Sequence record: MW822008.1
Direction: 5' to 3' (one strand)
Length of the DNA stretch: 64,000 nucleotides
From: Escherichia phage BF17
A program made the translations under genes and the position numbers. This document shows positions 49,326 through 64,000 of this stretch, in pieces. The notes under the pieces were generated by a model. It was not told the origin of the DNA. It saw only the letters and a program-made list of their open reading frames with translations, and searched no databases. Positions within the stretch are counted from its first letter, which is position 1; the number at the start of each line of letters is the position of its first letter.

Positions 49326-49326
49326 A

Positions 49327-49709: not shown

Positions 49710-49730
49710 TATATACTACGGGGTAACATC

Positions 49731-49961: not shown

Positions 49962-49966
49962 GTACA

Positions 49967-49995
49967 TAGCCCACCTGGTGGGCTTTTTTGTTTTT
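49967..49995 (+). terminator. rho-independent terminator
   Basis: AGCCCACCTGGTGGGCT + TTTTTGTTTTTG. Confidence 0.65.
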
Positions 49996-50043
49996 GTAGT
50001 ATCGTAGTACTGAGATACTTTGAAAATAGTTTTAAAAAAGTAG

Positions 50044-50072
50044 TTGACATTACCGCAGAAAAGCGTAGAATG
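50044..50072 (+). promoter_or_regulatory. sigma70-like promoter with ~120-nt leader
   Basis: TTGACA, 16-17 nt, TAGAAT. Confidence 0.5.
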
Positions 50073-50194
50073 TATTACATCAAGACGGGGAGCACTAAGT
50101 AGACCGCCAGTAAGTCGAACGAAAAACTGGACACGTCGAGAAAACTTTGATACACTAATAAACGTAAACTAAACTTTAATTGAGGATTTATAAA

Positions 50195-50677: not shown

Positions 50678-50698
50678 CAATTAAAGTACTGAATCACT

Positions 50699-50730
50699 AG
50701 CCCACTTATACAGTGGGCTTTTTTGTGTTT
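50699..50730 (+). terminator. rho-independent terminator
   Basis: AGCCCACTTATACAGTGGGCT + TTTTTGTGTTT. Confidence 0.65.
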
Positions 50731-50875
50731 ATCGTTTACCAGGCCACCAGCACCGCCTAGAAACGATTCTAACGCATTAAACTGATTATCTGATGCATCA
50801 CCCTAGCTGGTGGCGTTAAGGTCGTTAGAATGCGATTGAGTGCGTTTAAAGTATTTTACAAAAAGTAATAAAAAG

Positions 50876-50940
50876 TACTTGCACGATTAAGAGATTAGCG
50901 TATAATGTTTTACATCGAGAGGGGGAAACGGTTCTCCTTC
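50876..50940 (+). promoter_or_regulatory. early-type promoter with leader hairpin
   Basis: ACTTGCACGATT...TATAAT; hairpin GGGGGAAACGGTTCTCC. Confidence 0.55.
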
Positions 50941-50961
50941 CAAATCAAAGGAATCAAAACA

Positions 50962-51189
50962 ATGGCTATTATCATTACTCGCGTATCTGGTACTACTGGC
51001 AACGAACAAGTAGTTGCAGTCATTACCAACAAGGAAGGTGCGGAATTGCAAAATGCAATGAATACCTGGGCCGTTAATGAGTTCGGTCAGTGGGCAAGTG
51101 TAGCATACATTGAAACCTATCAAGTGCCGTCGATTAGTTTAACTGATTTGGGCGTTGAGCGTATCCTTTGCCTTGATGAATTAAATTAA
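50962..51189 (+). CDS. hypothetical protein
   Basis: trimmed to MAIIITRVSG. Confidence 0.55.
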   Translation: MAIIITRVSGTTGNEQVVAVITNKEGAELQNAMNTWAVNEFGQWASVAYIETYQVPSISLTDLGVERILCLDELN

Positions 51190-51193
51190 AAAA

Positions 51194-51260
51194 GTACTTG
51201 CAAAGTAAATCGAATAAAGTATAATACATTACATCAAGGGGAGAAAATGGTTCTCCCCAC
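51194..51260 (+). promoter_or_regulatory. early-type promoter with leader hairpin
   Basis: ACTTGCAAAGTAAATCGAATAAAG TATAAT; hairpin GGGGAGAAAATGGTTCTCCCC. Confidence 0.55.
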
Positions 51261-51275
51261 TACAAGGAAACTAAA

Positions 51276-51419
51276 ATGAAAACTTGTCAATGTGGTCAGA
51301 AATCTATTACGGGTTTAAAGCGGGGCGTTGCTCTTTGCCAGTACCATTATAATTTACAAGTATGGGGTAAAGAATGGGCCGACCAGGTGGAAGCAGCAAA
51401 GAAAGCAAAAAGTAAGTAA
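51276..51419 (+). CDS. small Cys-containing protein
   Basis: 47-aa ORF below cutoff; MKTCQCGQ...CQYH. Confidence 0.4.
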   Translation: MKTCQCGQKSITGLKRGVALCQYHYNLQVWGKEWADQVEAAKKAKSK

Positions 51420-51438
51420 AAATATTATCACAGTACTA

Positions 51439-51467
51439 TTGACATAGTTTGATAGTACTGGCATAAT
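51439..51467 (+). promoter_or_regulatory. sigma70-like promoter (TTGACA class), in an ~80-bp repeat
   Basis: TTGACATAGTTTGATAGTACTGG CATAAT; block repeated at 51712-51790. Confidence 0.55.
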
Positions 51468-51498
51468 AGATTTTATCAAGACGACTAAGGAAAACAAA

Positions 51499-51711
51499 AT
51501 GGCTATCATTACAAAAATCAAAGTAAACAAATCACTGGTTAAACTTGAACAAGTGAAAGCAGGTTATAAAGTATCGTGGTGCGGTATGTATCGGATGTTC
51601 GCAGATATTGATGAAGCGATCAATTATTACAGCGACACGGTTAAAAACTTTGTTCGTGCTGATGTGGTTATGGCAGTGGCAGCACATAAAGCAGCGAAAG
51701 AAAGTAAGTAA
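51499..51711 (+). CDS. hypothetical protein
   Basis: 70 aa; MAIITKIKV; N-terminal similarity to 54613-54792. Confidence 0.55.
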   Translation: MAIITKIKVNKSLVKLEQVKAGYKVSWCGMYRMFADIDEAINYYSDTVKNFVRADVVMAVAAHKAAKESK

Positions 51712-51730
51712 AAATATTATCACAGTACTA

Positions 51731-51759
51731 TTGACATAGTTTGATAGTACTGGCATAAT
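51731..51759 (+). promoter_or_regulatory. sigma70-like promoter (TTGACA class), repeat copy
   Basis: same sequence as 51439-51467. Confidence 0.55.
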
Positions 51760-51800
51760 AGATTTTATCAAGACAACATATTAATTTAAGGAATACAAAA

Positions 51801-52124
51801 ATGGCTAAAACTATCATTAACACCGTTTCCCTGGCTGCAATCCGTGCAATCAATGTTGACGGTAAACGTTGGACTGATTCATATGGCAATACTTATCATT
51901 CTTGTCATGTAAGCGTTGAACTGGATAACGGTTTGAATGATCTGGCGGTTGAATCATTTACTTATGGCTATGAAGATGCATATCAACAAACGGCGTTAGA
52001 TCTCTTAAAGGAATCAGTAGACGGGCTTAATACTGATGAAACCTCCCTTACTCGTTTGTGCAATGATCTTAATATCCCGTTGCATTGTACTGTACAGAAT
52101 GTTAAACGCAAAAAAGATCTTTAA
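51801..52124 (+). CDS. hypothetical protein, paralog of 58219-58542
   Basis: 107 aa; shared RWTDS.GNTYHSC.VS and FTYGY, ending VKRKKD. Confidence 0.6.
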   Translation: MAKTIINTVSLAAIRAINVDGKRWTDSYGNTYHSCHVSVELDNGLNDLAVESFTYGYEDAYQQTALDLLKESVDGLNTDETSLTRLCNDLNIPLHCTVQNVKRKKDL

Positions 52125-52204
52125 TTAGCTTTACTTTATGCAGATACTTTGATATAGTGTCTGCATAGGGGAAAGAAATTAAATTAACTTAAGAGGATCG
52201 TATA

Positions 52205-52474
52205 ATGAAAAATATCAGTACTTTAATCGATGCAGGTACACATGTTCGGCGGTCTATGGTTGCAACCAGTACTACAAAACAAGTAGCGAGCGGTTATCTT
52301 GTATTTGTGCACGATGGTAAACTCCTGGAACGTTCAATCAATTTTGATGTTAAAAACAATTGCCGTTTTATTATCTTTAAGCGTGAACAATATAAAATTG
52401 ATTTACCAGCGAAGCCCATAAGCGGGGCGTACAACGTGCAATCATTGTTTGAGCGTCAACCTTACACCTATTAA
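52205..52474 (+). CDS. hypothetical protein
   Basis: 89-aa ORF, GAGGA upstream. Confidence 0.55.
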   Translation: MKNISTLIDAGTHVRRSMVATSTTKQVASGYLVFVHDGKLLERSINFDVKNNCRFIIFKREQYKIDLPAKPISGAYNVQSLFERQPYTY

Positions 52475-52525
52475 TCAAAACATCGTTAGCGGTCGTTTAA
52501 GGCCGCTTATATTGGGGATTATACC

Positions 52526-52798
52526 ATGAACGTTAATCAAGTACTGAATGAGATCGAAAGCATCATTAAACCGATGAAGCGTACTGATGCTATGTTAACA
52601 CCGGAAGAAAGCCGCCTATATGAGCGTTACAGCGTCGAACAAGTCCAGGCAATGGCTATGGCTACGCCAGCCGTTAAACCGCCTGAGAATGCGTTACAGG
52701 ACGTTACAGGGGATTATATCATTAATCCAGTACTAGGGAAGATGCCGCCAATCACCGAAGAACAAAAAGACTATTTGAGTCAGTACTTAAAAGGTTAA
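52526..52798 (+). CDS. hypothetical protein
   Basis: 90-aa ORF. Confidence 0.55.
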   Translation: MNVNQVLNEIESIIKPMKRTDAMLTPEESRLYERYSVEQVQAMAMATPAVKPPENALQDVTGDYIINPVLGKMPPITEEQKDYLSQYLKG

Positions 52799-52803
52799 TT
52801 AAT

Positions 52804-53013
52804 ATGCTTACTGTACAGGATAAGATCGACATCTTAAAGGTTAATATGTATGTGATTGATGCCGTACCTGGTAAAGTATTTGCATACGATGATTCTAATC
52901 GCAGTCCTTTCTATTGTAGTCATGTAGTTGGATACGTGCCGTTGGCGTATGTTATCGAAAGAGTGGTTGATGCAGCATACAATCATTTTTTAGAAAATAA
53001 TACTTGCAATTAG
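52804..53013 (+). CDS. hypothetical protein
   Basis: 69-aa ORF. Confidence 0.5.
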   Translation: MLTVQDKIDILKVNMYVIDAVPGKVFAYDDSNRSPFYCSHVVGYVPLAYVIERVVDAAYNHFLENNTCN

Positions 53014-53065
53014 TTTTTAAACGCGTATAATGTTTTACATGAAGGGGAGAAATGATTCTCCCCAC
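53002..53065 (+). promoter_or_regulatory. early-type promoter with leader hairpin
   Basis: ACTTGCAATTAG...TATAAT; hairpin GGGGAGAAATGATTCTCCCC. Confidence 0.55.
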
Positions 53066-53082
53066 TAATTAAGGAATATGAA

Positions 53083-53229
53083 ATGAAAGCATCAAAAAAG
53101 AGTAATACCAAGAAAGCATGTTCACCTTTCGCTGGGGTATTCCCTTTACGTTTCGTTGATGAAGTGGTTTCCTACCCGCTGGGCCTTACTCCTGAGATGG
53201 TAGAAAGTTTGCGTAAATCTAAAAAATAA
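53083..53229 (+). CDS. small basic protein
   Basis: 48-aa ORF below cutoff. Confidence 0.4.
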   Translation: MKASKKSNTKKACSPFAGVFPLRFVDEVVSYPLGLTPEMVESLRKSKK

Positions 53230-53230
53230 T

Positions 53231-53292
53231 ACTTGCAATTAGTTTTCAGTACTGTATAATAGTTTACATGAAGGGGAGAAATGATTCTCCCC
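53231..53292 (+). promoter_or_regulatory. early-type promoter with leader hairpin
   Basis: near-duplicate of 53002 unit. Confidence 0.55.
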
Positions 53293-53310
53293 AATAACAG
53301 GAGAAACAAA

Positions 53311-53463
53311 ATGAAACAATACAACGCTCGGTTTGATGTTACTATCGGCAACGGCAAAGGTCAATTCTCTTTCAGTACTCGCCGCAGTTATACAGAAAAC
53401 TTCCTGCGAAATTGTGCACTGACCGCCGCACAAATTAAACATTACTTCCAGGCTAAAAAATGA
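53311..53463 (+). CDS. small protein
   Basis: trimmed to MKQYNARF; 50 aa. Confidence 0.45.
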   Translation: MKQYNARFDVTIGNGKGQFSFSTRRSYTENFLRNCALTAAQIKHYFQAKK

Positions 53464-53679
53464 AATCATTAGCTTATTACAGTTCGGCGGTGATCGGTGC
53501 ATTGATCGCGGCATTGTTAGTAACCTATCTATTCTTTATGGTGATTTAAATGAATCCTAACGGTTTAATTTACAGTACTACTAAAACGAAAGCAGATAAA
53601 GCGAAAGTAAAGGAGTACATTAAGCAAGGCATGACGCGAAAGGCGGCAGTACTGAAAGCTAAAAAATAAATGAAAAAAG

Positions 53680-53699
53680 TGGTTGACTTCGGTCAGCCA
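53680..53699 (+). terminator. hairpin terminator with embedded TTGACT
   Basis: TGGTTGACTTCGGTCAGCCA. Confidence 0.5.
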
Positions 53700-53800
53700 T
53701 TTTGCTATTATATATTCATTGAGAGATAGCTCACTAGCCCACCGGGTGCATAAGTGTATCTATTATATAAGTATTGAGTACTGAGAACTATTTTTAAAAA

Positions 53801-53866
53801 GTACTTGCAAACTATCTCAATTGGCGTATAATGTTTTACATCGAGAGGGGGAACGGTTTCCCCTGG
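53801..53866 (+). promoter_or_regulatory. early-type promoter with leader hairpin
   Basis: ACTTGCAAACTATCTCAATTGGCG TATAAT; hairpin GGGGGAACGGTTTCCCC. Confidence 0.6.
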
Positions 53867-53883
53867 TAATAAGGAAACGAATC

Positions 53884-54225
53884 ATGACTATCTCAATTGC
53901 TCAATCTAACTTTGAAAATGAAATCATCGCCCAGGCACTGCGTTTAAATGATGGTCGGGCCGAAATTAATTACGGTTTCAATTCAGGCGGTTGTGAAAAC
54001 TATCAGTACTTTGTAACTGCTGATGGCGGTGTCCTGGGCATCAATACCGTTATTGTAAACATTCAGAAAATTAATTTCAATGATCCAGACGATAGCCAGT
54101 TTTACATTGTAGGCGTAGACGTGAACTATGAGGATGACTCACTAACTGATGATCACACTGGCGAGAAGTTAGAAAGTGCATACGGTGAAGATGATTATCA
54201 GTCCGGTCCAGAAGATTTTGAATAA
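53884..54225 (+). CDS. hypothetical acidic protein
   Basis: trimmed to MTISIAQSNFE; 113 aa. Confidence 0.6.
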   Translation: MTISIAQSNFENEIIAQALRLNDGRAEINYGFNSGGCENYQYFVTADGGVLGINTVIVNIQKINFNDPDDSQFYIVGVDVNYEDDSLTDDHTGEKLESAYGEDDYQSGPEDFE

Positions 54226-54238
54226 TATTAAAAAATAG

Positions 54239-54300
54239 TTTGACAATAGATTATAGTACTGTATAATAAGTTACATCAAGGGGAGAATAGTTCTCCCCAC
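54239..54300 (+). promoter_or_regulatory. sigma70-like promoter with leader hairpin
   Basis: TTGACA-17-TATAAT; hairpin GGGGAGAATAGTTCTCCCC. Confidence 0.6.
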
Positions 54301-54316
54301 TAACAGAGAAAACAAA

Positions 54317-54529
54317 ATGGCTAATATCTGCACTGTACTGAAAAATGCAAAACAAGTTTTATTTTCTGACCACGATTATTTTAATAAAGATATTACAGGC
54401 GTTCGGAATATCAAAGATGTAAAAAGTGTTATGGGTATCTATTGCAATATGAAACGTGTTGGAACGTTCGGCGACAAAGTACTATACCAGGCAGGGGATT
54501 ACAATTTTACACTGACTATCATTAACTAA
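54317..54529 (+). CDS. hypothetical protein
   Basis: 70-aa ORF. Confidence 0.55.
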   Translation: MANICTVLKNAKQVLFSDHDYFNKDITGVRNIKDVKSVMGIYCNMKRVGTFGDKVLYQAGDYNFTLTIIN

Positions 54530-54548
54530 AAATATTATCACAGTACTA

Positions 54549-54578
54549 TTGACATAGTTTGATAGTACTGACATAATA
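54549..54578 (+). promoter_or_regulatory. sigma70-like promoter (TTGACA class), repeat copy
   Basis: third copy of the 51421 block with -10 variant ACATAAT. Confidence 0.5.
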
Positions 54579-54612
54579 ACTTTTATCAACTACACTACTA
54601 AGGAATTAAAAA

Positions 54613-54792
54613 ATGGCTATCATCGCAAAAACTGAAATCGTTGGTCTGGATTCTATCATCATGACGTTTGAAGATCAAAAAGGTATGTATGTAGTTTCAT
54701 ATGGTGATTATGTTCGGGAGTATGAAACGGTAGACGAAGCCTTTGAAAGTTATATTCGCCAGGTGAATAAAGCATACGACGACTACCGCTAA
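54613..54792 (+). CDS. small protein
   Basis: 59-aa ORF below cutoff; MAIIAKTEIVGL. Confidence 0.45.
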   Translation: MAIIAKTEIVGLDSIIMTFEDQKGMYVVSYGDYVREYETVDEAFESYIRQVNKAYDDYR

Positions 54793-54819
54793 AATATATT
54801 ACCAGTACTATTAAAGTTA

Positions 54820-54848
54820 TTGACATAGTTTGATAGTACTGTATAATA
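54820..54848 (+). promoter_or_regulatory. sigma70-like promoter (TTGACA class)
   Basis: TTGACATAGTTTGATAGTACTG TATAAT. Confidence 0.5.
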
Positions 54849-54891
54849 AGTTTTATAAACAGTAGTTAACTTAACCTAAGAGAGAAATAAA

Positions 54892-55035
54892 ATGATCGCA
54901 CTGGATTCATTCATCGACGCAGTACTGGCAAAAACTGGCGAGGATCTGACCGCAGAACAATACGCGATGATCGAGCAATGTCAGCAAAACGGTAAATCGG
55001 TGAAAGATACTGTTAAGATTATCCGCAAGATGTAA
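54892..55035 (+). CDS. small protein
   Basis: 47-aa ORF below cutoff; followed by terminator-like inverted repeat. Confidence 0.4.
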   Translation: MIALDSFIDAVLAKTGEDLTAEQYAMIEQCQQNGKSVKDTVKIIRKM

Positions 55036-55134
55036 GATTATAGCCCACTGGTTAACGCTGGTGGGCTTTAATCCTTTACCCTATACAATGTCAGTACTAA
55101 ACCGTTTATCTCATTAGAATGCGTTACAGGACGT

Positions 55135-55338
55135 TTGACAATGATTAGCATGAAATCAGTACAAAAACAAATAGAAACATTATCAAAAATTAAACGTAAA
55201 CAGTACTCGTTAGAATATACAATCAATGGTAACTATCATCTAATGAAAGAGAATAATTTTATCGTCATTGATGAATCATTGCAAGTTATTAGTATAGTAC
55301 TGAAAGCATTAATTAATGATAGAAAAAAATTAAAATAA
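55135..55338 (+). CDS. hypothetical protein
   Basis: 67-aa ORF. Confidence 0.45.
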   Translation: MTMISMKSVQKQIETLSKIKRKQYSLEYTINGNYHLMKENNFIVIDESLQVISIVLKALINDRKKLK

Positions 55339-55669
55339 TCTATTGACAATATCCTCCAGTACTGGCATAATACTTACATCAAGACGAGAACGTCACTAAC
55401 CCATAGGGTGCACAAATGTAACTGTATAATATTGATCAAAAAATGATCTGATCAATACTTGATCAATTTGCGTAAAGTAGTATAATTCTATGCAGTTGGT
55501 TAGACGAAAGGTTATGATTAGTAGTGCAAGTGTATAAAAATTTTCATGGTGTATCGTTCCGCACATATGGCAATGAATATGTGGTATCATGTGGATTGGA
55601 AAAAGTAAGAACAAGTAATATTATTGTCGCATTACAGTACTATAGTATTTTTATAATGAGGTTAAAATA

Positions 55670-55927
55670 ATGGCTGTAGGATTCGCGAAAGATGGGGCCG
55701 AACAAGACGAGATTAACGCAGTGATTCAGGCCGCCGTTAACCACGCTAGAAAGCAAATTAACGCACAAATAGAATCACTGATACATTGCCTCGACTGCGG
55801 CGATATAATCCCTGAGAAACGACGCCAGGCCGTTAAGGGATGTAAGTACTGCATAACTTGCCAGGAGGATCATGATAGTACTTTTAAACGTCCCCCGCGT
55901 AATTGTTGGCATAGATCTATGAGATAA
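55670..55927 (+). CDS. TraR/DksA-family C4 zinc-finger protein
   Basis: 85 aa; C-x2-C...C-x2-C in HCLDCGDIIPEKRRQAVKGCKYCITCQE. Confidence 0.65.
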   Translation: MAVGFAKDGAEQDEINAVIQAAVNHARKQINAQIESLIHCLDCGDIIPEKRRQAVKGCKYCITCQEDHDSTFKRPPRNCWHRSMR

Positions 55928-55933
55928 AAAGTA

Positions 55934-55990
55934 TTGACAGTACTATCCAGTAGTGTTATAGTACTTACATCAAGGGGAAACATCTTCCCC
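55934..55990 (+). promoter_or_regulatory. sigma70-like promoter with leader hairpin
   Basis: TTGACAGTACTATCCAGTAGTG TTATAGT; hairpin GGGGAAACATCTTCCCC. Confidence 0.5.
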
Positions 55991-56002
55991 TACTAAGAGG
56001 AA

Positions 56003-56197
56003 ATGAAAATGGAAAACTTATCAAGTATTTTAGTACAAGATGATTTCGGTAATCCTGGAAGTGCTATCATTGTTCGGGGTAATAAAGCAACATTTGTTAT
56101 TGCTGGTGGACCTGTACAGCGTAGCATTAAAAACAATGCCGTTACTATTAATAATGTACGCTATCGCTTAGATAAAGAATTGATTCATAAACTGTAA
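56003..56197 (+). CDS. hypothetical protein
   Basis: 64-aa ORF (alternative start 56009). Confidence 0.5.
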   Translation: MKMENLSSILVQDDFGNPGSAIIVRGNKATFVIAGGPVQRSIKNNAVTINNVRYRLDKELIHKL

Positions 56198-56224
56198 TAT
56201 TAATTTAATAGAGGATAACAATAA

Positions 56225-56548
56225 ATGTACATTCATACTACTATCACAAAGGAAGTCCGTTGCCAGTTCGAAAGTATTCCGGGCGTATGTTTCATCACTG
56301 GTACGTTTTCCCCTGGTGATCGTGATAATCCAGTACTGTTACAATTACGCCATCCATCATGGGATAAAGCATTTGATCTACCGTTGAATGAATTCGCAAC
56401 TACTGCTGAAAAGTACATTAAAAATATTCGCGAGAATGATCGACTATTCATTAATGCTTTCAGTGATTCCGCGTTAAGCGAGATCCACAGCGTATTGGTT
56501 GCAATCATGGAATCAATGGAGAAAACTAAATTCAAACAAGGTGAATAA
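56225..56548 (+). CDS. hypothetical protein
   Basis: 107-aa ORF, GAGGA upstream. Confidence 0.55.
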   Translation: MYIHTTITKEVRCQFESIPGVCFITGTFSPGDRDNPVLLQLRHPSWDKAFDLPLNEFATTAEKYIKNIRENDRLFINAFSDSALSEIHSVLVAIMESMEKTKFKQGE

Positions 56549-56553
56549 AAACT

Positions 56554-56616
56554 ATTGACAAGATAATCTAGTACTGTATAATAAGTTACATGAAGGGGAG
56601 AAATGATTCTCCCCAC
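56554..56616 (+). promoter_or_regulatory. sigma70-like promoter with leader hairpin
   Basis: TTGACA-17-TATAAT; hairpin GGGGAGAAATGATTCTCCCC. Confidence 0.6.
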
Positions 56617-56631
56617 TGAGAGGAAAGAAAA

Positions 56632-56844
56632 ATGCAAGGTCAACTAATCGTTCGTAAATGGTCTGATACTAACGCTAAACCGTGGGATGTACAATACATC
56701 GGACCGGATGGGGTATCACGTTATCAGCCTGGCGTAACGCATAGTACTGAGCAATATGCCGCCGCTCACCGCGAACGCCTGTTAGAATCCATGAAACAGG
56801 GATACGGTGAAAAATTCATTCAAGATCATTGGCTGAAAGATTAA
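56632..56844 (+). CDS. hypothetical protein
   Basis: 70-aa ORF. Confidence 0.55.
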   Translation: MQGQLIVRKWSDTNAKPWDVQYIGPDGVSRYQPGVTHSTEQYAAAHRERLLESMKQGYGEKFIQDHWLKD

Positions 56845-56861
56845 TATAAGGAGTACAGCTT

Positions 56862-56954
56862 ATGCAAATGAATCCGATGATTATTGTGTTAGCTGTACTT
56901 ATGATCATTCATGCAATAGTAAAAGTATTAACGCAATCAGGAGTAATAAAATGA
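56862..56954 (+). CDS. small hydrophobic peptide
   Basis: 30-aa ORF; AAGGAG upstream; single TM-like helix. Confidence 0.35.
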   Translation: MQMNPMIIVLAVLMIIHAIVKVLTQSGVIK

Positions 56955-57124
56955 TTCAAGTAGAATTATCAGTACTGAAAGATCTGTTTTATCGGTTAGG
57001 TACTACTGGCGAGTATCCTAAAAGTGATACCGCAAAACTTTTTGTATCACTCGACTTATGGCAACGCGAACAATTAGTAATGTCCTGGCGTAAAGGTAAA
57101 GCAGATAGCGAGGTGAAAGCATGA
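56951..57124 (+). CDS. small protein
   Basis: 57-aa ORF overlapping upstream stop (ATGA). Confidence 0.35.
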   Translation: MIQVELSVLKDLFYRLGTTGEYPKSDTAKLFVSLDLWQREQLVMSWRKGKADSEVKA

Positions 57125-57270
57125 AAGAATTCTTATTCGAAGTAGTGTTTCAAGGTGTCGGTAGTAACCAACTGATTCGCTCAAGTGGTTATAATGTTAA
57201 CCAGGCATGGAATAACATTAAACAAATGTACCCGAACGCTATCACCTATCGCAACCCGAAAGAAGTTTAA
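57121..57270 (+). CDS. small protein
   Basis: 49-aa ORF overlapping upstream stop. Confidence 0.35.
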   Translation: MKEFLFEVVFQGVGSNQLIRSSGYNVNQAWNNIKQMYPNAITYRNPKEV

Positions 57271-57284
57271 AAATATTTGAAAAA

Positions 57285-57306
57285 GGGATTGACTCCGGTC
57301 AGTCCC
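57285..57306 (+). terminator. hairpin terminator with embedded TTGACT
   Basis: GGGATTGACTCCGGTCAGTCCC. Confidence 0.55.
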
Positions 57307-57414
57307 TTTGCTATTATATACGCATAGAAACAAATCAGCCCACAGGGTGCATAAATGTATCTATTGTTTGCTGGTGGCTAGTACTGAAAACTATTTTTAA
57401 AAAAGTACTTGCAT

Positions 57415-57446
57415 TGTACTTAGAATCAAGTATAATGTTTTACATC
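57415..57446 (+). promoter_or_regulatory. early-type promoter driving the second candidate small-RNA copy
   Basis: ACTTGCATTGTACTTAGAATCAAG TATAAT. Confidence 0.55.
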
Positions 57447-57525
57447 AGGACGGGGAACGAAACAAGTAACCCCGTTAAGTAGTCCAGGAGTAAGACATAA
57501 GAAAACCTCCCCTGATAAAATAGTT
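57447..57525 (+). ncRNA. candidate small RNA / structured leader, copy 2
   Basis: near-identical to 47131-47215; again between an upstream promoter and a downstream TTGACA...TATAAT. Confidence 0.4.
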
Positions 57526-57585
57526 TGACAATAGAAAGTAAACGAGTATAATACTTACATCAACCACTGATAAGGAAACATTAAA

Positions 57586-57861
57586 ATGCGGATTCTACTG
57601 ACAGCTAACGAAATCGAACAAGTACTGACTACTAACCTGGAAGACTGGAAACGTGAAGCAGATATCCAGGCGGTTCAACTGCTTAACGATAAGTTAACGC
57701 CGGATGACTTAAGCAAGATTGTAGATCCTCAATTCTACGAAGATATCCACGACACCGCGTTAAGCGTCGAGGATGTACTAGATAAGCACTACATTGATAT
57801 TGATTTGCAGGTTTACGGTCGTAAAAACTTTATCACTATTCACGACATTTATAATAATTAA
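57586..57861 (+). CDS. hypothetical protein
   Basis: 91-aa ORF. Confidence 0.55.
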   Translation: MRILLTANEIEQVLTTNLEDWKREADIQAVQLLNDKLTPDDLSKIVDPQFYEDIHDTALSVEDVLDKHYIDIDLQVYGRKNFITIHDIYNN

Positions 57862-57863
57862 GT

Positions 57864-57925
57864 ATTGACAAAGTATCTTAGTACTGTATAATAGTTTACA
57901 TCGAGAGGGGGAATGGTTCCCCTCC
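57864..57925 (+). promoter_or_regulatory. sigma70-like promoter with leader hairpin
   Basis: TTGACAAAGTATCTTAGTACTG TATAAT; hairpin GGGGGAATGGTTCCCCTCC. Confidence 0.6.
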
Positions 57926-57947
57926 TAACAAAGAGAGAGAAATAAAA

Positions 57948-58130
57948 ATGGCTAAATGCACTATCTGCAAGAAAGAAATAGTATTAGTTCCAAGTGCCCG
58001 TGAACGTGCCGCTCGGTTCGGTGGCAAAGCGTCAGACTATACAAAAATGTTTACTACCCATGCAGCTTGCCAGGTAGCAAAACGTTCACAAGAAAGCGTA
58101 GAATTAATGCGTAAACTTTCCAAAAAATAA
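57948..58130 (+). CDS. small Cys-containing protein
   Basis: 60 aa; C-x2-C at N-terminus. Confidence 0.5.
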   Translation: MAKCTICKKEIVLVPSARERAARFGGKASDYTKMFTTHAACQVAKRSQESVELMRKLSKK

Positions 58131-58133
58131 GTA

Positions 58134-58196
58134 TTGACAAAGTATCTTAGTACTGTATAATAGTTTACATCAAGTGAGGGGAAACGGTTCCCCTCC
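58134..58196 (+). promoter_or_regulatory. sigma70-like promoter with leader hairpin
   Basis: near-duplicate of 57864 unit. Confidence 0.6.
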
Positions 58197-58218
58197 TAAC
58201 AAAGAGAGAGAAATAAAA

Positions 58219-58542
58219 ATGGCTATGATCCTTGCCCAGAAAGTAGAACTGAAAATTGTAACCTCCTTTGACATTAAAGTTAATCGGTGGACTGATTCAC
58301 ACGGCAATACTTACCACTCTTGCTACGTGTCCGCGTTAATTGGCGACCGCTGGGAAGACTTGGGACATGAAACCTTTACTTACGGTTACGGTACACAAGG
58401 AGAATACACGGGCTTGGAGATCATTAAAGAAACCGTTATAGGTTTCAACCCGAAAGAAAAAGTTATTCACCGCATCGAAAAAGAGATTAACAAAGAAATA
58501 ACAGTTCGCTACTACGATGTAAAACGTAAGAAAGACATGTAA
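58219..58542 (+). CDS. hypothetical protein, paralog of 51801-52124
   Basis: trimmed to MAMILAQ. Confidence 0.6.
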   Translation: MAMILAQKVELKIVTSFDIKVNRWTDSHGNTYHSCYVSALIGDRWEDLGHETFTYGYGTQGEYTGLEIIKETVIGFNPKEKVIHRIEKEINKEITVRYYDVKRKKDM

Positions 58543-58637
58543 TAGAATCCATTTAAAGTACTATTTGACATTGCCCAGATAGTACTTTATAATAGACTCT
58601 AACTTGTAGTACTAACTCAACTAATAGGATGTATACC

Positions 58638-59033
58638 ATGATTACTAAATTCTACGCTACCCGTGAAGCTGCCCGTATTGTTGCACGCGAGGAAGGAGCA
58701 GCATTTAAAGACATGGGCAAAGATGCACCGAAAGGTCAACGCTGGGCCGTACAGTTCAAAGAAATCTCTGATATTGTGAATTCACCTGAGCCAGTACTAA
58801 CAGCAGCAGAACTAAAACGAGCGGATTTACTGGCGGCAGTACTTAACGCACAAGATGAATTTATCGCTGATTCTGATATCAAAGTACAGACAAACCATAC
58901 CGCTTGGACTCACGCGGATCACCTGGCAAACCTTAAGCGTCCAAGTGAACTGGTTCGCAACCAGAAAGAGATCCGACACGACCGTAAGGGTAATCGTGTA
59001 ACAGTATACAGTAAACGCCGCCAGGTTATCTAA
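58638..59033 (+). CDS. hypothetical protein, paralog of 46266-46532
   Basis: trimmed to MITKFYATREAARIVAREEG. Confidence 0.6.
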   Translation: MITKFYATREAARIVAREEGAAFKDMGKDAPKGQRWAVQFKEISDIVNSPEPVLTAAELKRADLLAAVLNAQDEFIADSDIKVQTNHTAWTHADHLANLKRPSELVRNQKEIRHDRKGNRVTVYSKRRQVI

Positions 59034-59054
59034 TAACTTGCAGTACTAACAACA

Positions 59055-59088
59055 CGGCGGGATCAGTTCCCGCCTTTTTTATAGGATA
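59055..59088 (+). terminator. rho-independent terminator
   Basis: GGCGGGATCAGTTCCCGCC + TTTTTT. Confidence 0.65.
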
Positions 59089-59095
59089 AACTAAA

Positions 59096-59350
59096 ATGAT
59101 TAAGGTACAACTATCTAAAGATAATATCTTGCGGGTACACTATAAAGCACCACAGAGAATCATCACAAAGGCCGTACAGCTTGCTAATGAGTTTATTAAT
59201 GGTAACCTATTACCAAGGAAGTTAAGCAACGGAAAACTGCGTGTAATCGATGTAGACACTAACAACAGAATAGTAATTGAGAACACAGGAAAGATAAACC
59301 TATATGAACACCAACAATATAATAAGAAAATAAAACTAATATCACGTTGA
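59096..59350 (+). CDS. hypothetical protein
   Basis: 84-aa ORF. Confidence 0.5.
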   Translation: MIKVQLSKDNILRVHYKAPQRIITKAVQLANEFINGNLLPRKLSNGKLRVIDVDTNNRIVIENTGKINLYEHQQYNKKIKLISR

Positions 59351-59376
59351 CAGTACTCAATTGTTTTAGTATTATG
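59347..59376 (+). promoter_or_regulatory. sigma70-like promoter
   Basis: TTGACA-17-TATTAT; duplicated at 59623. Confidence 0.55.
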
Positions 59377-59403
59377 TACACATACCAACACGGGAGAAAC
59401 AAA

Positions 59404-59622
59404 ATGAAATTATCTAAAATCGAAAAGAAAACTATTGATGAAGCAGTTAAGCACGGTTATACCTTTCGTAATGATTCACATTTTACCAATTTTCAACAAG
59501 GCCAAAGGACTATTAAAAAACTAATTGACAAAGGTTTATTAGTTAAAGTAGATAACGGTAACGGCATTGAGTATCAGCCAACCCAAGACGCATTATCTTT
59601 AAAGAAATATGCAATTATCTAA
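59404..59622 (+). CDS. hypothetical protein
   Basis: trimmed to MKLSKIEKK. Confidence 0.55.
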   Translation: MKLSKIEKKTIDEAVKHGYTFRNDSHFTNFQQGQRTIKKLIDKGLLVKVDNGNGIEYQPTQDALSLKKYAII

Positions 59623-59653
59623 TTGACAGTACTCAAATGTTTTAGTACTATAT
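59623..59653 (+). promoter_or_regulatory. sigma70-like promoter (duplicate of 59347 unit)
   Basis: TTGACAGTACTCAAATGTTTTAG TACTAT. Confidence 0.55.
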
Positions 59654-59679
59654 GTACATACCAACACGGGGAAAACAAA

Positions 59680-59922
59680 ATGATTACTTTAGAAAAACGT
59701 ATCAAAGAAACTACATCGCTGGTGGAACTGTTAACAGTACTGAAATGCCGTACTACTCGGTTTAGTACACCGGACTTTATTAATATGGTTGATGTTAACG
59801 GTCGTTATCGCATTGCAGTAGAACATGGAACAGCGAAAGTATTCAGTACTAAAAACACTAAGGAAGTGATTCACGCGGTTAGTGTGAAAAAAGTGGTTGC
59901 CATTGATAGTAAAGTACTGTAA
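59680..59922 (+). CDS. hypothetical protein
   Basis: trimmed to MITLEKRIKE. Confidence 0.55.
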   Translation: MITLEKRIKETTSLVELLTVLKCRTTRFSTPDFINMVDVNGRYRIAVEHGTAKVFSTKNTKEVIHAVSVKKVVAIDSKVL

Positions 59923-59953
59923 GATAGTTTCATTAACTCAAGGAGAACATGCA

Positions 59954-60538
59954 ATGCGTAATTATACTAAATTCATCCGTACCCTGTCAGAAATGGAAAC
60001 CAACAAAGAGATCCTTTCAGCTTGTCGGTTAGCTGGTCTGGAGATCATCGGTGCGGGTTCTTCCCGTATTGTATTCGCTTTAAATGATCGGTTAGTGATT
60101 AAGGTCGCCAATTGTGATGCGGGTGTAGAACAAAATGAAACTGAATGTAAGGTATGGAATTTTTTAGACTATGACCGCCCTCAATTGAAACAGTACTTTG
60201 CAAAGGTGCATATGCATTTATGCGATCCTGATAATATGTTTATCGTTATGGATCGGTTGAGTACTGCAAGCAAAGGCAGTGTAAAGCACGTTAACGCGTG
60301 CAACGAATTAAAGTACAATATTAAACGTAATGCCATTGAACGCCAGCACCGCTTTGCTGATGCACTACAACACGTCGATGATACATTATCAACACTAACG
60401 ATAAGAGATATCAGAAAACAGAATATCGGCCAGGATCGTAATGGACTTATTAAAGTACTTGATTACGGTTTAACCCGCAATATCTGGAATCAGTACTATA
60501 AAAAGCGTGATGTGGCAGCAAGTAAAGTAACACGATAA
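59954..60538 (+). CDS. possible small protein-kinase-like protein
   Basis: trimmed to MRNYTKF after AGGAGA; kinase-like motifs IGAGSSRIVF, VIKVA, IRDIRKQNIG, VLDYGL. Confidence 0.45.
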   Translation: MRNYTKFIRTLSEMETNKEILSACRLAGLEIIGAGSSRIVFALNDRLVIKVANCDAGVEQNETECKVWNFLDYDRPQLKQYFAKVHMHLCDPDNMFIVMDRLSTASKGSVKHVNACNELKYNIKRNAIERQHRFADALQHVDDTLSTLTIRDIRKQNIGQDRNGLIKVLDYGLTRNIWNQYYKKRDVAASKVTR

Positions 60539-60551
60539 AAAAGATTAAAAA

Positions 60552-60573
60552 AGGGATTGATTTCGGTCAGTCC
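60552..60573 (+). terminator. hairpin terminator with embedded -35-like box
   Basis: GGGATTGATTTCGGTCAGTCCC. Confidence 0.55.
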
Positions 60574-60674
60574 CTTTGCTATTATATATTCATTGAGAGA
60601 TAGCTCACTGACCCACAGGGTGCATAAATGTATCTATTATATAAGTATTCAGTACTGAAAACTATTTTTAAAAA

Positions 60675-60742
60675 GTACTTGCATTGTACTTAGAATCAAG
60701 TATAATGTTTTATATCGAGAGGGGGGGAACGGTTCTCCCTCA
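60675..60742 (+). promoter_or_regulatory. early-type promoter with leader hairpin
   Basis: ACTTGCATTGTACTTAGAATCAAG TATAAT; hairpin GGGGGGGAACGGTTCTCCCTC. Confidence 0.6.
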
Positions 60743-60761
60743 AAGAATAAGGAATAAAATC

Positions 60762-60983
60762 ATGACTACAATGACTTGCATTTACGCTTCCAATCTTCTG
60801 AATGATGCGGCCTTTAATGTTGATTCAGAATATCAATGTTATCGGGATGAAAATAAAAAAGTTTTTGTAGTTGATAATAATGGTTTCCATATTGAAATAC
60901 AATCCGGCTTCACTGGTGTTGATGGTAAATCAGTATGGGGCGTACAGGATGATAACGGTACATATCATTTTAAACGTAATTAA
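60762..60983 (+). CDS. hypothetical protein
   Basis: trimmed to MTTMTCIYAS. Confidence 0.55.
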   Translation: MTTMTCIYASNLLNDAAFNVDSEYQCYRDENKKVFVVDNNGFHIEIQSGFTGVDGKSVWGVQDDNGTYHFKRN

Positions 60984-60985
60984 GT

Positions 60986-61046
60986 ATTGACAAAGTATCT
61001 TAGTACTGTATAATAGTTTACATCAAGGGGAGAATAGTTCTCCCCG
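60986..61046 (+). promoter_or_regulatory. sigma70-like promoter with leader hairpin
   Basis: TTGACAAAGTATCTTAGTACTG TATAAT; hairpin GGGGAGAATAGTTCTCCCC. Confidence 0.6.
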
Positions 61047-61067
61047 ATACTAAAAGGAAACAAAATT

Positions 61068-61340
61068 ATGTCCAGCTACTCCGCTACTATGATCATTAAA
61101 GATATGAACGGTAATCCTACTTCCGCTGGTGGATCATTTGGAAACATTAATTTAGATGGTCGGTTATCCATGCAATCAGCCATCGATGCAGCGAAAGAAG
61201 TTTTTAAGAATGAATGCACTGTAAGCAAGCTGGATTATATGGGATTCGCTATCGAGAAAACTAATCGTTTTGTGAACTACAAAAATCCACTGATGATTGA
61301 TACTAACCTGAAAGCTAACGAAGTGGAATACTTATTATGA
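61068..61340 (+). CDS. hypothetical protein
   Basis: 90-aa ORF. Confidence 0.55.
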   Translation: MSSYSATMIIKDMNGNPTSAGGSFGNINLDGRLSMQSAIDAAKEVFKNECTVSKLDYMGFAIEKTNRFVNYKNPLMIDTNLKANEVEYLL

Positions 61341-61528
61341 CAGTTGAAGAAGTTAAAAAAGTACTGGCAGTACTACGCTATCATAATCATTGCAAGGTGA
61401 AGAATGATCCTGATTATGTTGATTCATCCCTGGAGGAAGACACATTAAACGCAATAAGCCATATGCAAACATTAGCAAAGCGTATGACCGAAAAGAATAG
61501 ACCGGACTATATCGGAAATAAAATTTAA
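61337..61528 (+). CDS. hypothetical protein
   Basis: 63-aa ORF overlapping upstream stop. Confidence 0.5.
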   Translation: MTVEEVKKVLAVLRYHNHCKVKNDPDYVDSSLEEDTLNAISHMQTLAKRMTEKNRPDYIGNKI

Positions 61529-61530
61529 AA

Positions 61531-61597
61531 AGTACTTGCATTGTAGTTAGATTAACGTATAATGTTTTACATAGAGCGGGGGAATAGTTCTCCCGCC
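61531..61597 (+). promoter_or_regulatory. early-type promoter with leader hairpin
   Basis: ACTTGCATTGTAGTTAGATTAACG TATAAT; hairpin GCGGGGGAATAGTTCTCCCGC. Confidence 0.6.
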
Positions 61598-61614
61598 AGT
61601 CCAGGAGATACACC

Positions 61615-61878
61615 ATGAACACTATCGAAATCACTATCAATGCACACGTATACGACAACGTAGTACTGCAAACTACTATGACCGCTAACGATACCAGTAC
61701 TTTGCGGAATACTGTTATTAGTGCCGTATGTGCCGCTATCGGTGATGTCGCCCTGGAAAATGCAAAACACGTAAACGATGGTTTCACTATGTGCAAACGT
61801 GATAACGCAAAACATATCATCGTGGAAGGTTACGGCGGTGTAGAATTTAATGTTTATATGAAAAAAGTACTTGCATAA
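61615..61878 (+). CDS. hypothetical protein
   Basis: 87-aa ORF. Confidence 0.55.
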   Translation: MNTIEITINAHVYDNVVLQTTMTANDTSTLRNTVISAVCAAIGDVALENAKHVNDGFTMCKRDNAKHIIVEGYGGVEFNVYMKKVLA

Positions 61879-61927
61879 TAACTAAAACAAAGTATAATGT
61901 TTTGCATAGGGGGAGATGTCCTCCCCC
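61866..61927 (+). promoter_or_regulatory. early-type promoter with leader hairpin
   Basis: ACTTGCATAATAACTAAAACAAAG TATAAT; hairpin GGGGGAGATGTCCTCCCCC. Confidence 0.55.
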
Positions 61928-61945
61928 ACTAAAAGGAGTAATAAA

Positions 61946-62170
61946 ATGGCTAACTTTGATGAACTGATGCGGGAAGTAGCTAACCTGGCAGAAGAGAAAA
62001 AATCATTCGATTCTATCTATAACACCTCTTACCGTGATTCAGTACTGGCATGTAACCAGGATCAAAAAGATGAACTAATCGCCACCTATCATGAAGCATG
62101 GAAGTACTACCGACAATGGGAGAAAGAAGAAAGAGAGTCTACCATTGACGGCCTCAATAATCTAATCTAA
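61946..62170 (+). CDS. hypothetical protein
   Basis: trimmed to MANFDELMRE. Confidence 0.55.
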   Translation: MANFDELMREVANLAEEKKSFDSIYNTSYRDSVLACNQDQKDELIATYHEAWKYYRQWEKEERESTIDGLNNLI

Positions 62171-62189
62171 AAGTTTTATTTCAGTACTA

Positions 62190-62220
62190 TTGACATAGCT
62201 TGATAGTACTGATGTAATAA
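62190..62220 (+). promoter_or_regulatory. sigma70-like promoter (TTGACA class), repeat copy
   Basis: TTGACATAGCTTGATAGTACTGA TGTAAT. Confidence 0.5.
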
Positions 62221-62246
62221 CTTTACTAACTACAAGGGGAAACATC

Positions 62247-62504
62247 ATGGAACAATTCACACAATATCGGGTAAATCCTCAAGCTATGGCCTACGTAGAA
62301 GACCATAAAACGTTACCAGTACTGCAACCAGTTAAAGGCCATATCTATCGTGCAATGTCGTGGAGTACGGCCCAGGATGGCTATAAAACCGTAGCCGTTG
62401 GTATGTACTGCGGTAATGGTGAATGGTTTGATCCAAATAATCCGGTAGCCATTGACAGTACTGAAAAAATGAAATGGGCCGACTACATCGAAGATATTTC
62501 ATAA
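62247..62504 (+). CDS. hypothetical protein
   Basis: 85-aa ORF. Confidence 0.55.
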   Translation: MEQFTQYRVNPQAMAYVEDHKTLPVLQPVKGHIYRAMSWSTAQDGYKTVAVGMYCGNGEWFDPNNPVAIDSTEKMKWADYIEDIS

Positions 62505-62518
62505 AAAGAATAAAAAAA

Positions 62519-62540
62519 AGGAGTTGACTTCGGTCCGCTC
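62519..62540 (+). terminator. hairpin terminator with embedded TTGACT
   Basis: GGAGTTGACTTCGGTCCGCTCC. Confidence 0.55.
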
Positions 62541-62746
62541 CTTTAGTACTATATACGCATAGAAACAAATCAGCCCACAGGGTGCATAAGTGTATCCAAA
62601 ATATATAGTTAATAACGGTGAGTAACTATCTGCTGGTGGAACTAAAACTATTAATAAAAAAGTATTGACAAAGTATATCAGTACTGCAATAATGTATCTC
62701 GTAGGGCGGCAATGGTGCGACGGCCCACAAAGTTAGGAGATTCAAA

Positions 62747-63079
62747 ATGAGTACTTCAATCGCTATCGTTAAAGCTTTCATCCGTACCAATGTTTCATCT
62801 GTATTCATCGACGGTCTGGATCGGGAAGTAGAATACTCAATCATTATCGCACAGACTGCAAACGGTGCTCGGTATATCCTTAATGATAGTGAAGCAAATC
62901 ACTACTACTTCACTAAAGCTACTGGCTTTAAACGCATCGATGCTGATGTAGTATACGCTAAGATGAATAAGCTGGTAGACAAGATTAACGCTAAAGGTAC
63001 TATAGATTTACAGTACTGGACCGAAACCGATCCAGAATATGGATCTCACCGCTACCTGAATCCAGGTATTAAAATGTAA
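62747..63079 (+). CDS. hypothetical protein
   Basis: 110-aa ORF; AGGAG upstream; preceded by TTGACA promoter at 62664. Confidence 0.55.
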   Translation: MSTSIAIVKAFIRTNVSSVFIDGLDREVEYSIIIAQTANGARYILNDSEANHYYFTKATGFKRIDADVVYAKMNKLVDKINAKGTIDLQYWTETDPEYGSHRYLNPGIKM

Positions 63080-63083
63080 AAAG

Positions 63084-63150
63084 TACTTGCATAGTACTTA
63101 GAATCAAGTATAATGTTTTACATAGAGAGGGGGAAATGGTTCTCCCTCCT
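63084..63150 (+). promoter_or_regulatory. early-type promoter with leader hairpin
   Basis: ACTTGCATAGTACTTAGAATCAAG TATAAT; hairpin GAGGGGGAAATGGTTCTCCCTCC. Confidence 0.6.
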
Positions 63151-63168
63151 AAATTAAGGAGTTTTATC

Positions 63169-63570
63169 ATGACCTTCTCAATCAATTCCTTCGCTGACGT
63201 TTTAGTACTGGCTCGGACTTTCGGTAAAGATGCACTGGAGTACGCTGTAAGTAATGGCACTATCCAACCGGAACAGTGCCGCATCATTGGAAACTGCAAA
63301 CGTTGGGCGGTATCCAATACTATTGCACTGGAAAACTTCCACGATGGCAACAATGAATATTCTGTTGATGTAGTATTCGAAGCCGTTGATCTCGGCGGTA
63401 TCTATAATACTAACCTGAATGATGTGCGTATCGTTCGCACGGGGTTCGGTGCTTATGATGTATCTATCCGTGAAGCTATGGACAACGGATACATTAGCAA
63501 GGACTTACTTGCTCACATCATGCAGCTGTGTACGGAACGTAACGAAGCACGCACTATCTTAGGACTGTAA
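63169..63570 (+). CDS. hypothetical protein
   Basis: trimmed to MTFSINSF; 133 aa. Confidence 0.6.
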   Translation: MTFSINSFADVLVLARTFGKDALEYAVSNGTIQPEQCRIIGNCKRWAVSNTIALENFHDGNNEYSVDVVFEAVDLGGIYNTNLNDVRIVRTGFGAYDVSIREAMDNGYISKDLLAHIMQLCTERNEARTILGL

Positions 63571-63584
63571 GCGTTACACATCAC

Positions 63585-63615
63585 CAAACATCATAGGCCG
63601 CCTTGTAGCGGCCTT
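63585..63615 (+). terminator. terminator-like hairpin
   Basis: GGCCGCCTTGTAGCGGCC; no strong T-run. Confidence 0.4.
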
Positions 63616-63638
63616 AACTATATCAGGAGTACATACAT

Positions 63639-63848
63639 ATGTTCTATACAGTATACAGCGTTCTAGGTACTATTGCAGGCGTACATGATAACGTCAATGA
63701 TGCTATGCGTACAGTACTGCAACAGGTTCCACTAAAGCCTAAGACCATTAAGCAGATGACAGCACGACTAACCAGGGCGACCGATGGCGTGGAAGTATGG
63801 CAGGACTACGGGGATACACAGATAATCGTTAGCGTAACGAAGGATTAA
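63639..63848 (+). CDS. hypothetical protein
   Basis: 69-aa ORF, AGGAG upstream. Confidence 0.55.
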   Translation: MFYTVYSVLGTIAGVHDNVNDAMRTVLQQVPLKPKTIKQMTARLTRATDGVEVWQDYGDTQIIVSVTKD

Positions 63849-64000
63849 TGCGTAAAGGGATCTAGTACTGATTCAGAAAAAAGTCAAGGCGTTTTTAAAA
63901 TTATGCGTTAAAAAAATGCATAGGTAATCCCTTGACTTTTTTGAAATAAAAGGGATTGGACTATGGCAAAATGCGTAGGGGGCTAAAGGGCGGGTAACCT

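Follow-up and report, generated by a model that had tools for sequence, protein, structure and literature searches.

The open reading frame at positions 59954..60538 of the DNA studied here raises two questions: can so small a protein be a working kinase, and if so, what would it phosphorylate? The window, by which we mean the whole 64,000-nt stretch of Escherichia phage BF17 DNA that was analysed (MW822008.1), had received an initial annotation in which four short motifs were read as the possible signature of a small protein kinase. We find all four in the order proposed: IGAGSSRIVF at residues 32-41, VIKVA at 48-52, IRDIRKQNIG at 150-159 and VLDYGL at 168-173. The gene lies on the + strand, its coordinates include the stop codon (60536-60538), and its product is 194 aa long. 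The open frame, the orthologues and a match to the phage protein family PHROG 4301 (E 8e-42) all mark it as coding sequence, and an AAGGAG ribosome-binding site, read from the sequence, is present on the + strand at 59940..59945, 8 nt before the ATG. We rejected a longer, TTG-started frame from 59897 as an ORF-finder artefact; it encroaches on the end of the gene before it, and none of the annotated orthologues, all of which are called at 194 aa, uses it.

These orthologues include WNN14351.1 of phage Sharanji, M2K_0170 of SHEFM2K, gp500 of phAPEC6 and EcMJ_042 of vB_Ec-M-J. The window protein and M2K_0170 of Escherichia phage SHEFM2K do not differ in sequence (100% identity); identity to the proteins of the 121Q/PBECO4/G17/phAPEC6/Sharanji group is 91-99.5%, and to those of RaK2-like jumbo phages of Klebsiella, Salmonella (Munch), Erwinia and Xanthomonas it is 36-42%. 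The window is thus DNA of an Asteriusvirus jumbo coliphage, of the 121Q/PBECO4/G17 group with genomes of ~350 kb. The paper on the virion proteome of phAPEC6 makes no mention of the kinase orthologue gp500.

Sequence comparison places the protein among the kinases. The Pfam Pkinase profile (PF00069) aligns co-linearly with residues 46-181 over profile positions 26-152 of 263 at E 0.0022, with a score of 17.9 bits that falls under the gathering cut-off of 31.7. Searching the PDB sequences with phmmer gave 86 weak matches, and the best 60 of these 86 are all protein kinases. When a profile built from 11 homologues was compared with the PDB, MKK4 and MKK7 were found at E 2e-4 to 6e-4, in alignments that extend from the glycine-rich loop to just beyond the DFG motif; the MKK7 match covers residues 21-171. 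A profile of 53 homologues (hmmsearch) gave MKK4 as the best match at E 4.6e-5, along with 83 matches at E<0.01. Protein kinases account for almost all of the PDB matches. Pfam searches of the 53 relatives returned weak matches only, to Pkinase (5, E<0.01), ABC1 (2) and PK_Tyr_Ser-Thr (1), and PADLOC returned only weak matches to PD-T4-6 kinases. An NCBIfam search added nothing useful. Every significant match that these profile searches produced is a kinase, and by this measure the kinase resemblance of the motifs exceeds chance.

Structure prediction led to the same fold. AlphaFold2 run with a shallow alignment of 11 close homologues gave an unusable model (pLDDT 50), but the 53-sequence alignment obtained from an exhaustive search worked, yielding a model with pLDDT 94.4 and pTM 0.89. 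Foldseek matched this model to PDB entries at probability 1.0, among them Legionella Lpg2603, APH(2''), methylthioribose kinase, Rio2, PRPK, MEK1, BRAF and MKK4, and all PDB matches were to kinase-like folds, counting the related SAICAR synthase as one. Rio2 was matched at E 3e-4, and PRPK had the best query-normalised TM-score, 0.49, although structural scores of this kind fail to separate protein, RNA and small-molecule kinases and ATPases from one another. The possibility that profile or structure comparison would place the protein in a non-kinase fold was raised at the outset; the profiles led to kinases, and AlphaFold2 and Foldseek to kinase-like folds. We consider the assignment of the predicted structure to the two-lobed protein-kinase-like fold secure.

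Two N-terminal helices (residues 4-12 and 17-26) are followed in the AlphaFold2 model by strands at 30-34, 38-42 and 47-52. The glycine-rich loop IGAGSSRIVF (60047..60076, +) fits the family signature GxGSSRxV[FY], and strand beta-3 (47-52) carries Lys50 of VIKVA (60101..60103, +), which conservation and the model identify as the ATP-anchoring lysine. The expected partner of Lys50 is Glu64 in helix C (55-73). The start of this helix holds the conserved pattern G57-x-x-Q60-N61-x-x-E64 (60122..60145, +), the GxxQN part of which is a signature specific to the family. A strand at 96-100 precedes the hinge, and helices at 109-120 and 130-145 correspond in position to helices D and E. HMMER alignments and conservation located the catalytic loop IRDIRKQNIG (60401..60430, +); in alignments with MKK4, MKK7 and PknB-type kinases, Asp152 falls on the HRD Asp, Asn157 on the loop Asn and Asp170 on the DFG Asp. 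Short strands are predicted at 158-160 and 166-168, and conservation and the model agree on DYG (residues 170-172; 60461..60469, +) as the metal-binding equivalent of DFG. Only 24 residues follow the DYG, and they form a single closing helix (175-193), without an activation segment, APE motif or helices F to I.

Could this early ending reflect a broken gene? The family to which the protein belongs argues otherwise. Residues 3-188 match positions 13-185 of the 225 in the profile of PHROG 4301, a phage-only family of 'unknown function', at E 8.1e-42. All 53 aligned relatives also match PHROG 4301 and no other PHROG, and the copy of Pfam that we searched has no model for the family. When sequences clustered at 50% identity were searched exhaustively with the profile, 2,087 cluster representatives scored E<=1e-3, 253 of them E<=1e-10. 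The 107 single-domain members that could be parsed have a median length of 229 aa, with a median of 25 residues (quartiles 15-40) after the metal-binding Asp. Judged from these sequences, truncation after the DFG-type Asp is a trait of the family rather than the mark of a broken gene.

To describe conservation, we counted residues in 208 domain copies from 160 proteins sharing <=50% mutual identity. K50 is present in 198/198 copies, D170 in 193/193, G172 in 191/191 and E64 in 196/197, while D152 is found in 187 of 192 copies and is Glu in the other five. Position 157 is N, H, S or Q across the family. Three residues specific to the family vary nearly as little: Arg38, which stands in place of the third Gly of the loop (194/197), Q60 (192/196) and N61 (192/197). 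In the closing helix, Tyr182 is largely conserved too (147/174). The middle position of the DFG-type motif is Y in 143 of 193 copies and F in 26, and Pro is not among its five commonest residues. Of the HRD triplet only the Asp is kept, appearing as 'IRD' in the window protein and in variable surroundings in its relatives. That the catalytic residues hardly vary in a family this divergent points to an active enzyme and away from a pseudokinase, and the PHROG 4301 member in the window is, from its sequence, apparently catalytically active.

The domain is found in several settings. Some members are stand-alone early genes; others string together two, three or four domains, and in further cases the domain is part of a tape-measure-like protein or of a giant multi-domain protein. 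Of the 160 representatives, 25, all of >=400 aa, have two to four copies of the kinase domain in tandem. These tandem-copy relatives (P0021, P0022, P0030, P0036 and others) measure 400-970 aa, with one further example of 3,248 aa, and short acidic linkers connect their domains; P0021 is a genuine reading frame, present in phage contigs of 150-185 kb. The 3,248-aa protein, P0135 (locus L011, 2318-12064), has a PhageMin_Tail domain at residues 125-315 and kinase domains at 665-831 and 856-1034, and this distant family member is, from its domain content, probably a tape measure protein. Proteins of the tape-measure class leave the virion and are ejected into the cell during infection. P0112, of 2,130 aa (locus L007, 10001-16393), is a genuine uninterrupted ORF in a phage contig of 26% G+C. 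It has one clear PHROG 4301 domain, several more divergent kinase-like repeats recognised by eye, and domains of the GNAT, 2H phosphoesterase and CCA-adding enzyme types; 2 kb downstream is a gene for a HAD_SAK_1 phosphatase, in a context resembling RNA repair. Four other family neighbourhoods contain only small early-type genes or genes of DNA metabolism, and we saw no conserved partner gene next to family members in the neighbourhoods compared. The M6-like phage YuA is the source of the reference member of PHROG 4301, and its gp39, which belongs to the family, carries the Ser/Thr-kinase hallmark DLKPEN. We considered and dropped a role for YuA gp39 in thymidine hypermodification, as a 5-hmdU DNA kinase, having found nothing that links it to that pathway.

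We then asked whether the position of the gene is that of an early gene, as had been proposed. When phage vB_Ec-M-J is mapped onto the window, its position 1 falls on 43411 and the end of its direct terminal repeat on 64000, which is also the end of the window, so that the stretch 43411..64000 (+) matches the whole repeat (record positions 1-21525). The terminal repeat therefore makes up the last ~20.6 kb of the window, and the kinase gene begins 16.5 kb into it. The annotation of vB_Ec-M-J itself places the kinase gene within the direct terminal repeat, and the orthologue of Klebsiella phage Muenster falls under a predicted one. The repeat consists of small genes, all on one strand and separated by short gaps. 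It holds nine perfect (12/12) sigma-70 promoters of the form TTGACA-16/17-TATAAT, all on the + strand, together with about a dozen copies of TTGCAA-16-TATAAT; in total, 108 promoter-like sites were observed against 65.7 +/- 7.3 in shuffled sequence. The layout is reminiscent of the pre-early region of phage T5.

The nearest promoter to the kinase gene, recognised from its match to the consensus only, is a weak sigma-70-like TTGCCA-17-TAAGAT (9/12) directly upstream at 59897-59925 (+). Two better consensus matches precede the small genes upstream, one of 11/12 at 59347-59375 (+) and one of 10/12 at 59623-59651 (+). Our scan found no T-tailed terminator-like hairpin between these promoters and the kinase gene, only a weak hairpin of 5 pairs without a T run at 59757-59773, which makes read-through likely; the gene is thus likely to be transcribed from the upstream promoters. 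Host-type promoters and a place in the terminal repeat together suggest early transcription, and it is reasonable to infer that host RNA polymerase would transcribe the kinase gene at the onset of infection. The earlier placement of the gene among early genes thereby gains indirect support from the gene's location in the direct terminal repeat, among small genes that all run the same way, and from the consensus sigma-70 promoters. Action at the very start of infection is also suggested by the distant member P0135, whose two kinase domains are part of a probable tape measure, a kind of protein that is ejected into the cell.

Two features near the gene merit separate description. The two upstream small genes seem to share their N-termini (MTVLNCFS... 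at 59347-59405 and MTVLKCFS... at 59623-59680). This resemblance is an artefact, produced by the ORF finder starting at the TTG of the repeated TTGACA promoter; the real starts are internal ATGs, giving MKLSKIEK... and MITLEKRI.... Just after the kinase stop codon, at 60550..60577 (+), is a hairpin with a 12-bp stem that opens an intergenic cassette of ~230 bp. The cassette occurs in three copies of ~80% identity, at 53640-53900, 57250-57470 and 60520-60780. The hairpin is AAAGGGATTGAYTYCGGTCAGTCCCTTT, and its loop and 3' flank form a promoter-like site, TTGACT-17-TATTAT; a conserved CCCACAGGGTG element, a TTGCAT-16-TATAAT promoter and a ribosome-binding site follow. From its sequence, the cassette could be a terminator-promoter module or a short-RNA gene. 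An Rfam search of the terminal repeat, the cassette included, gave no match.

Elsewhere in the window, the minus strand between 18796 and 38020 carries a tandem array of ~17 paralogous genes encoding proteins of 300-430 aa, and the paralogues tested contain RCC1-like beta-propeller repeats (Pfam RCC1, E 6e-13; WD40_RLD, E 5e-23). An endonuclease V-type pyrimidine-dimer DNA glycosylase (PHROG 1183, E 1e-58) is encoded at 12139-12654, and a small AAA/STAND-like NTPase is encoded near it at 15482-16252.

From these findings, we propose that the gene encodes an ATP-dependent phosphotransferase whose protein-kinase-like fold would be reduced to its catalytic core: a complete N-lobe preceded by two N-terminal helices, then helices D and E, the loop with Asp152 and Asn157, the DYG motif and one closing helix. 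Host RNA polymerase would transcribe the gene at the very start of infection from the sigma-70 promoters of the terminal repeat. The product would then phosphorylate Ser and Thr residues of proteins, principally those of the host, in the service of takeover or anti-defence. Since both the activation segment and the sub-domains for peptide binding are missing, its activity would be constitutive and its selectivity probably loose, much as in the case of T7 gp0.7 and its similarly shortened kinase domain. An active protein kinase is the reading that we think probable, with protein as the likeliest substrate, and we infer that the proteins concerned would be those of the host.

The evidence on the substrate points in more than one direction. 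For a protein substrate, the stretch rDirkqNig...GliKvlDYGlt closely follows the pattern of Hanks-type Ser/Thr and dual-specificity kinases. Against it, the parts with which canonical kinases bind peptides (activation segment, P+1 loop, helices F and G) are absent, and among other kinases truncated to this extent ArkI has RNA as its substrate, APH has small molecules, and Rio and Bud32 work as ATPases. The T7 kinase domain shows the same kind of truncation and yet phosphorylates proteins, so a missing activation segment is compatible with protein kinase activity; by analogy, its absence may favour constitutive and promiscuous action. We also looked for depletion of Ser, Thr and Tyr as a signature of promiscuous T7-like kinases. 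These residues make up 17.6% of the early proteins encoded in the terminal repeat versus 22.6% elsewhere in the window (p 0.016), but a comparison with other small proteins shows no difference (p 0.33).

An RNA kinase similar to ArkI would phosphorylate the ribose or the 5'-hydroxyl of an RNA such as tRNA. It could thereby put host RNA out of action or, where anticodon nucleases attack the tRNA of phage or host, serve in its repair or protection. The fusion in P0112 of the domain to GNAT, 2H phosphoesterase and CCA-adding enzyme domains, near the HAD_SAK_1 gene, speaks for this reading, as does the basic nature of the window protein, with its pI of 9.3. A single fusion carries little weight, though, given how often large multi-domain phage proteins combine unrelated functions, and the family is not consistently basic (median pI 7.2, with 31% of members below 6). 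ArkI replaces the HRD Asp and the DFG Gly, both of which PHROG 4301 retains; the best sequence matches are protein kinases and not ArkI; and RNA-repair genes are absent beside the window gene and in the four other contexts. On balance, we regard an RNA kinase as unlikely. A small-molecule kinase of the aminoglycoside or sugar type, inactivating a host or environmental compound or a defence signalling nucleotide, seems to us quite unlikely. GNAT fusions occur in two relatives, BFVD A0A6J5LUL6 and P0112, and recall the bifunctional AAC-APH enzymes, but the sub-domain that forms the substrate pocket of APH and choline kinases has no counterpart in a protein that ends 24 residues after its DYG. 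The His of H-x-D-x4-N is also absent, neither the window protein nor any of the 53 relatives matches Pfam APH, and the segment from catalytic loop to DFG aligns best with Hanks-type protein kinases.

Finally, the protein might bind or hydrolyse ATP without transferring phosphate, as an ATPase switch in the manner of Rio and Bud32 or as a binder of a host factor. Rio2 and PRPK/Bud32 are minimal kinases that in the cell hydrolyse ATP as part of a complex, and both are among the structural matches to the model (PRPK with its TM-score of 0.49). Strict conservation of Asp152 and of the two metal ligands in a family this divergent makes pure binding unlikely, and we saw no conserved partner gene beside family members in the neighbourhoods compared. 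We therefore hold this last reading to be very unlikely, and retain that of an active protein kinase as the most probable.

That the gene encodes a kinase is already public and is not a new claim. UniProt names the PBECO4 orthologue 'Protein kinase domain-containing protein', and several GenBank records of orthologues read 'protein kinase', 'PknA' or 'PRP4', while many others, the closest included, read 'hypothetical protein'. The Sharanji genome paper gives the orthologue WNN14351.1 as a second kinase of unknown function, and our literature searches found no experiment on any PHROG 4301 member. What is new is the firm fold assignment, the recognition of the minimal architecture as a family trait accompanied by invariant catalytic residues, the clear separation from the T7K family, and the unusual architectures of the relatives. 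For this gene 'protein kinase' is a justified annotation, to be preferred to 'hypothetical protein'.

The T7 kinase has recently been shown to disarm many bacterial defence systems by mass phosphorylation, and PHROG 4301 is a different and far larger family of minimal kinases, found in what is probably the first DNA expressed by jumbo phages that are used for therapy. In relatives the domain is repeated in tandem or forms part of a tail protein with a probable entry into the cell. If its members act on host proteins, they would represent a second general route to takeover or anti-defence, and would offer a kinase scaffold that is compact and constitutively active. Activity on RNA or small molecules would extend the known chemistry of the viral kinase fold. 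A bolder generalisation, which we treat as doubtful, is that PHROG 4301 as a whole might form a second, independent and far more widespread class of 'loose-cannon' phage kinases, or else a family of RNA kinases that would be the first viral counterpart of the ArkI type.

How does this protein compare with characterized kinases? Among cellular systems, Hanks-type kinases (MKK4, MKK7, PknB) match best at the sequence level, and do so co-linearly between the glycine-rich loop and the DFG. They share with the window protein the Lys-Glu pair, the catalytic Asp and Asn, and the stretch G-x-IK-x-x-D-[FY]-G. They differ in having a GxGxxG loop where the window protein has GxGSSR, in possessing the His and Arg of HRD, and in keeping the activation segment that follows DFG, the APE motif and helices F to I, all of which the window protein lacks. 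In the tRNA 2'-kinase ArkI (AQ578), HRD and DFG are replaced by HGQ and DFE, and sub-domains IX and XI are still present. ArkI is a housekeeping enzyme of archaea or thermophiles, and we found no match between it and the window protein at the sequence level. Rio and Bud32/PRPK, which are among the Foldseek matches, are small kinase folds that, like the window protein, do without an activation loop. They retain C-lobe helices, however, work in ribosome maturation and KEOPS complexes, and show no sequence-level similarity to it. The aminoglycoside 2''-phosphotransferases have a C-terminal helical sub-domain for substrate binding and the motif H-x-D-x4-N, whereas the window protein has neither.

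The comparison with T7 gp0.7, which the initial annotation had offered as an analogy for host takeover, holds in part. Common descent beyond the superfamily is the part that fails: the window protein has no match at E<=1 to PHROG 2828, the T7 gp0.7 family (PF27024), and hhalign of the PHROG 4301 family against 16 jumbo-phage T7K-like proteins gave a probability of 2.4% and an E-value of 0.019, over the N-lobe only. Similarity at the level of fold is seen in BFVD, where T7-like kinases of Autographiviridae are matched at E ~4e-7 to 1e-5. Bartolec et al. (Nature 2026) reported T7K homologues in jumbo phages including G17 and Munch (PMC13645617). We rejected the window gene as a candidate for that homologue, which is instead gp144 of Sharanji (WNN14432.1), a protein of 224 aa with DIHSSN and TDP motifs encoded at OR545507.1 66182-66856 (locus L006, 4183-4857, minus strand). 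A tblastn search found no homologue of WNN14432.1 anywhere in the window, and the syntenic place, ~7600-8700, is taken by other small ORFs. T7 gp0.7 further differs in its DPV motif, where the window protein has DYG, and in its C-terminal shut-off/DNA-binding domain, which is missing from the window protein.

The part of the analogy that stands is the shape of the kinase domain. In T7 this domain spans residues 1-242, with the DFG equivalent (DPV) at 213-215, and its targets make up about 70% of the expressed proteome (PMC13645617). Its metal-binding Asp, at 213 of 242, lies about as close to the domain's end as Asp170 does in the 194-residue window protein, so that both are truncated in the same manner. 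Like the window protein, T7 gp0.7 does without a regulatory activation segment, and it is made at the start of infection.
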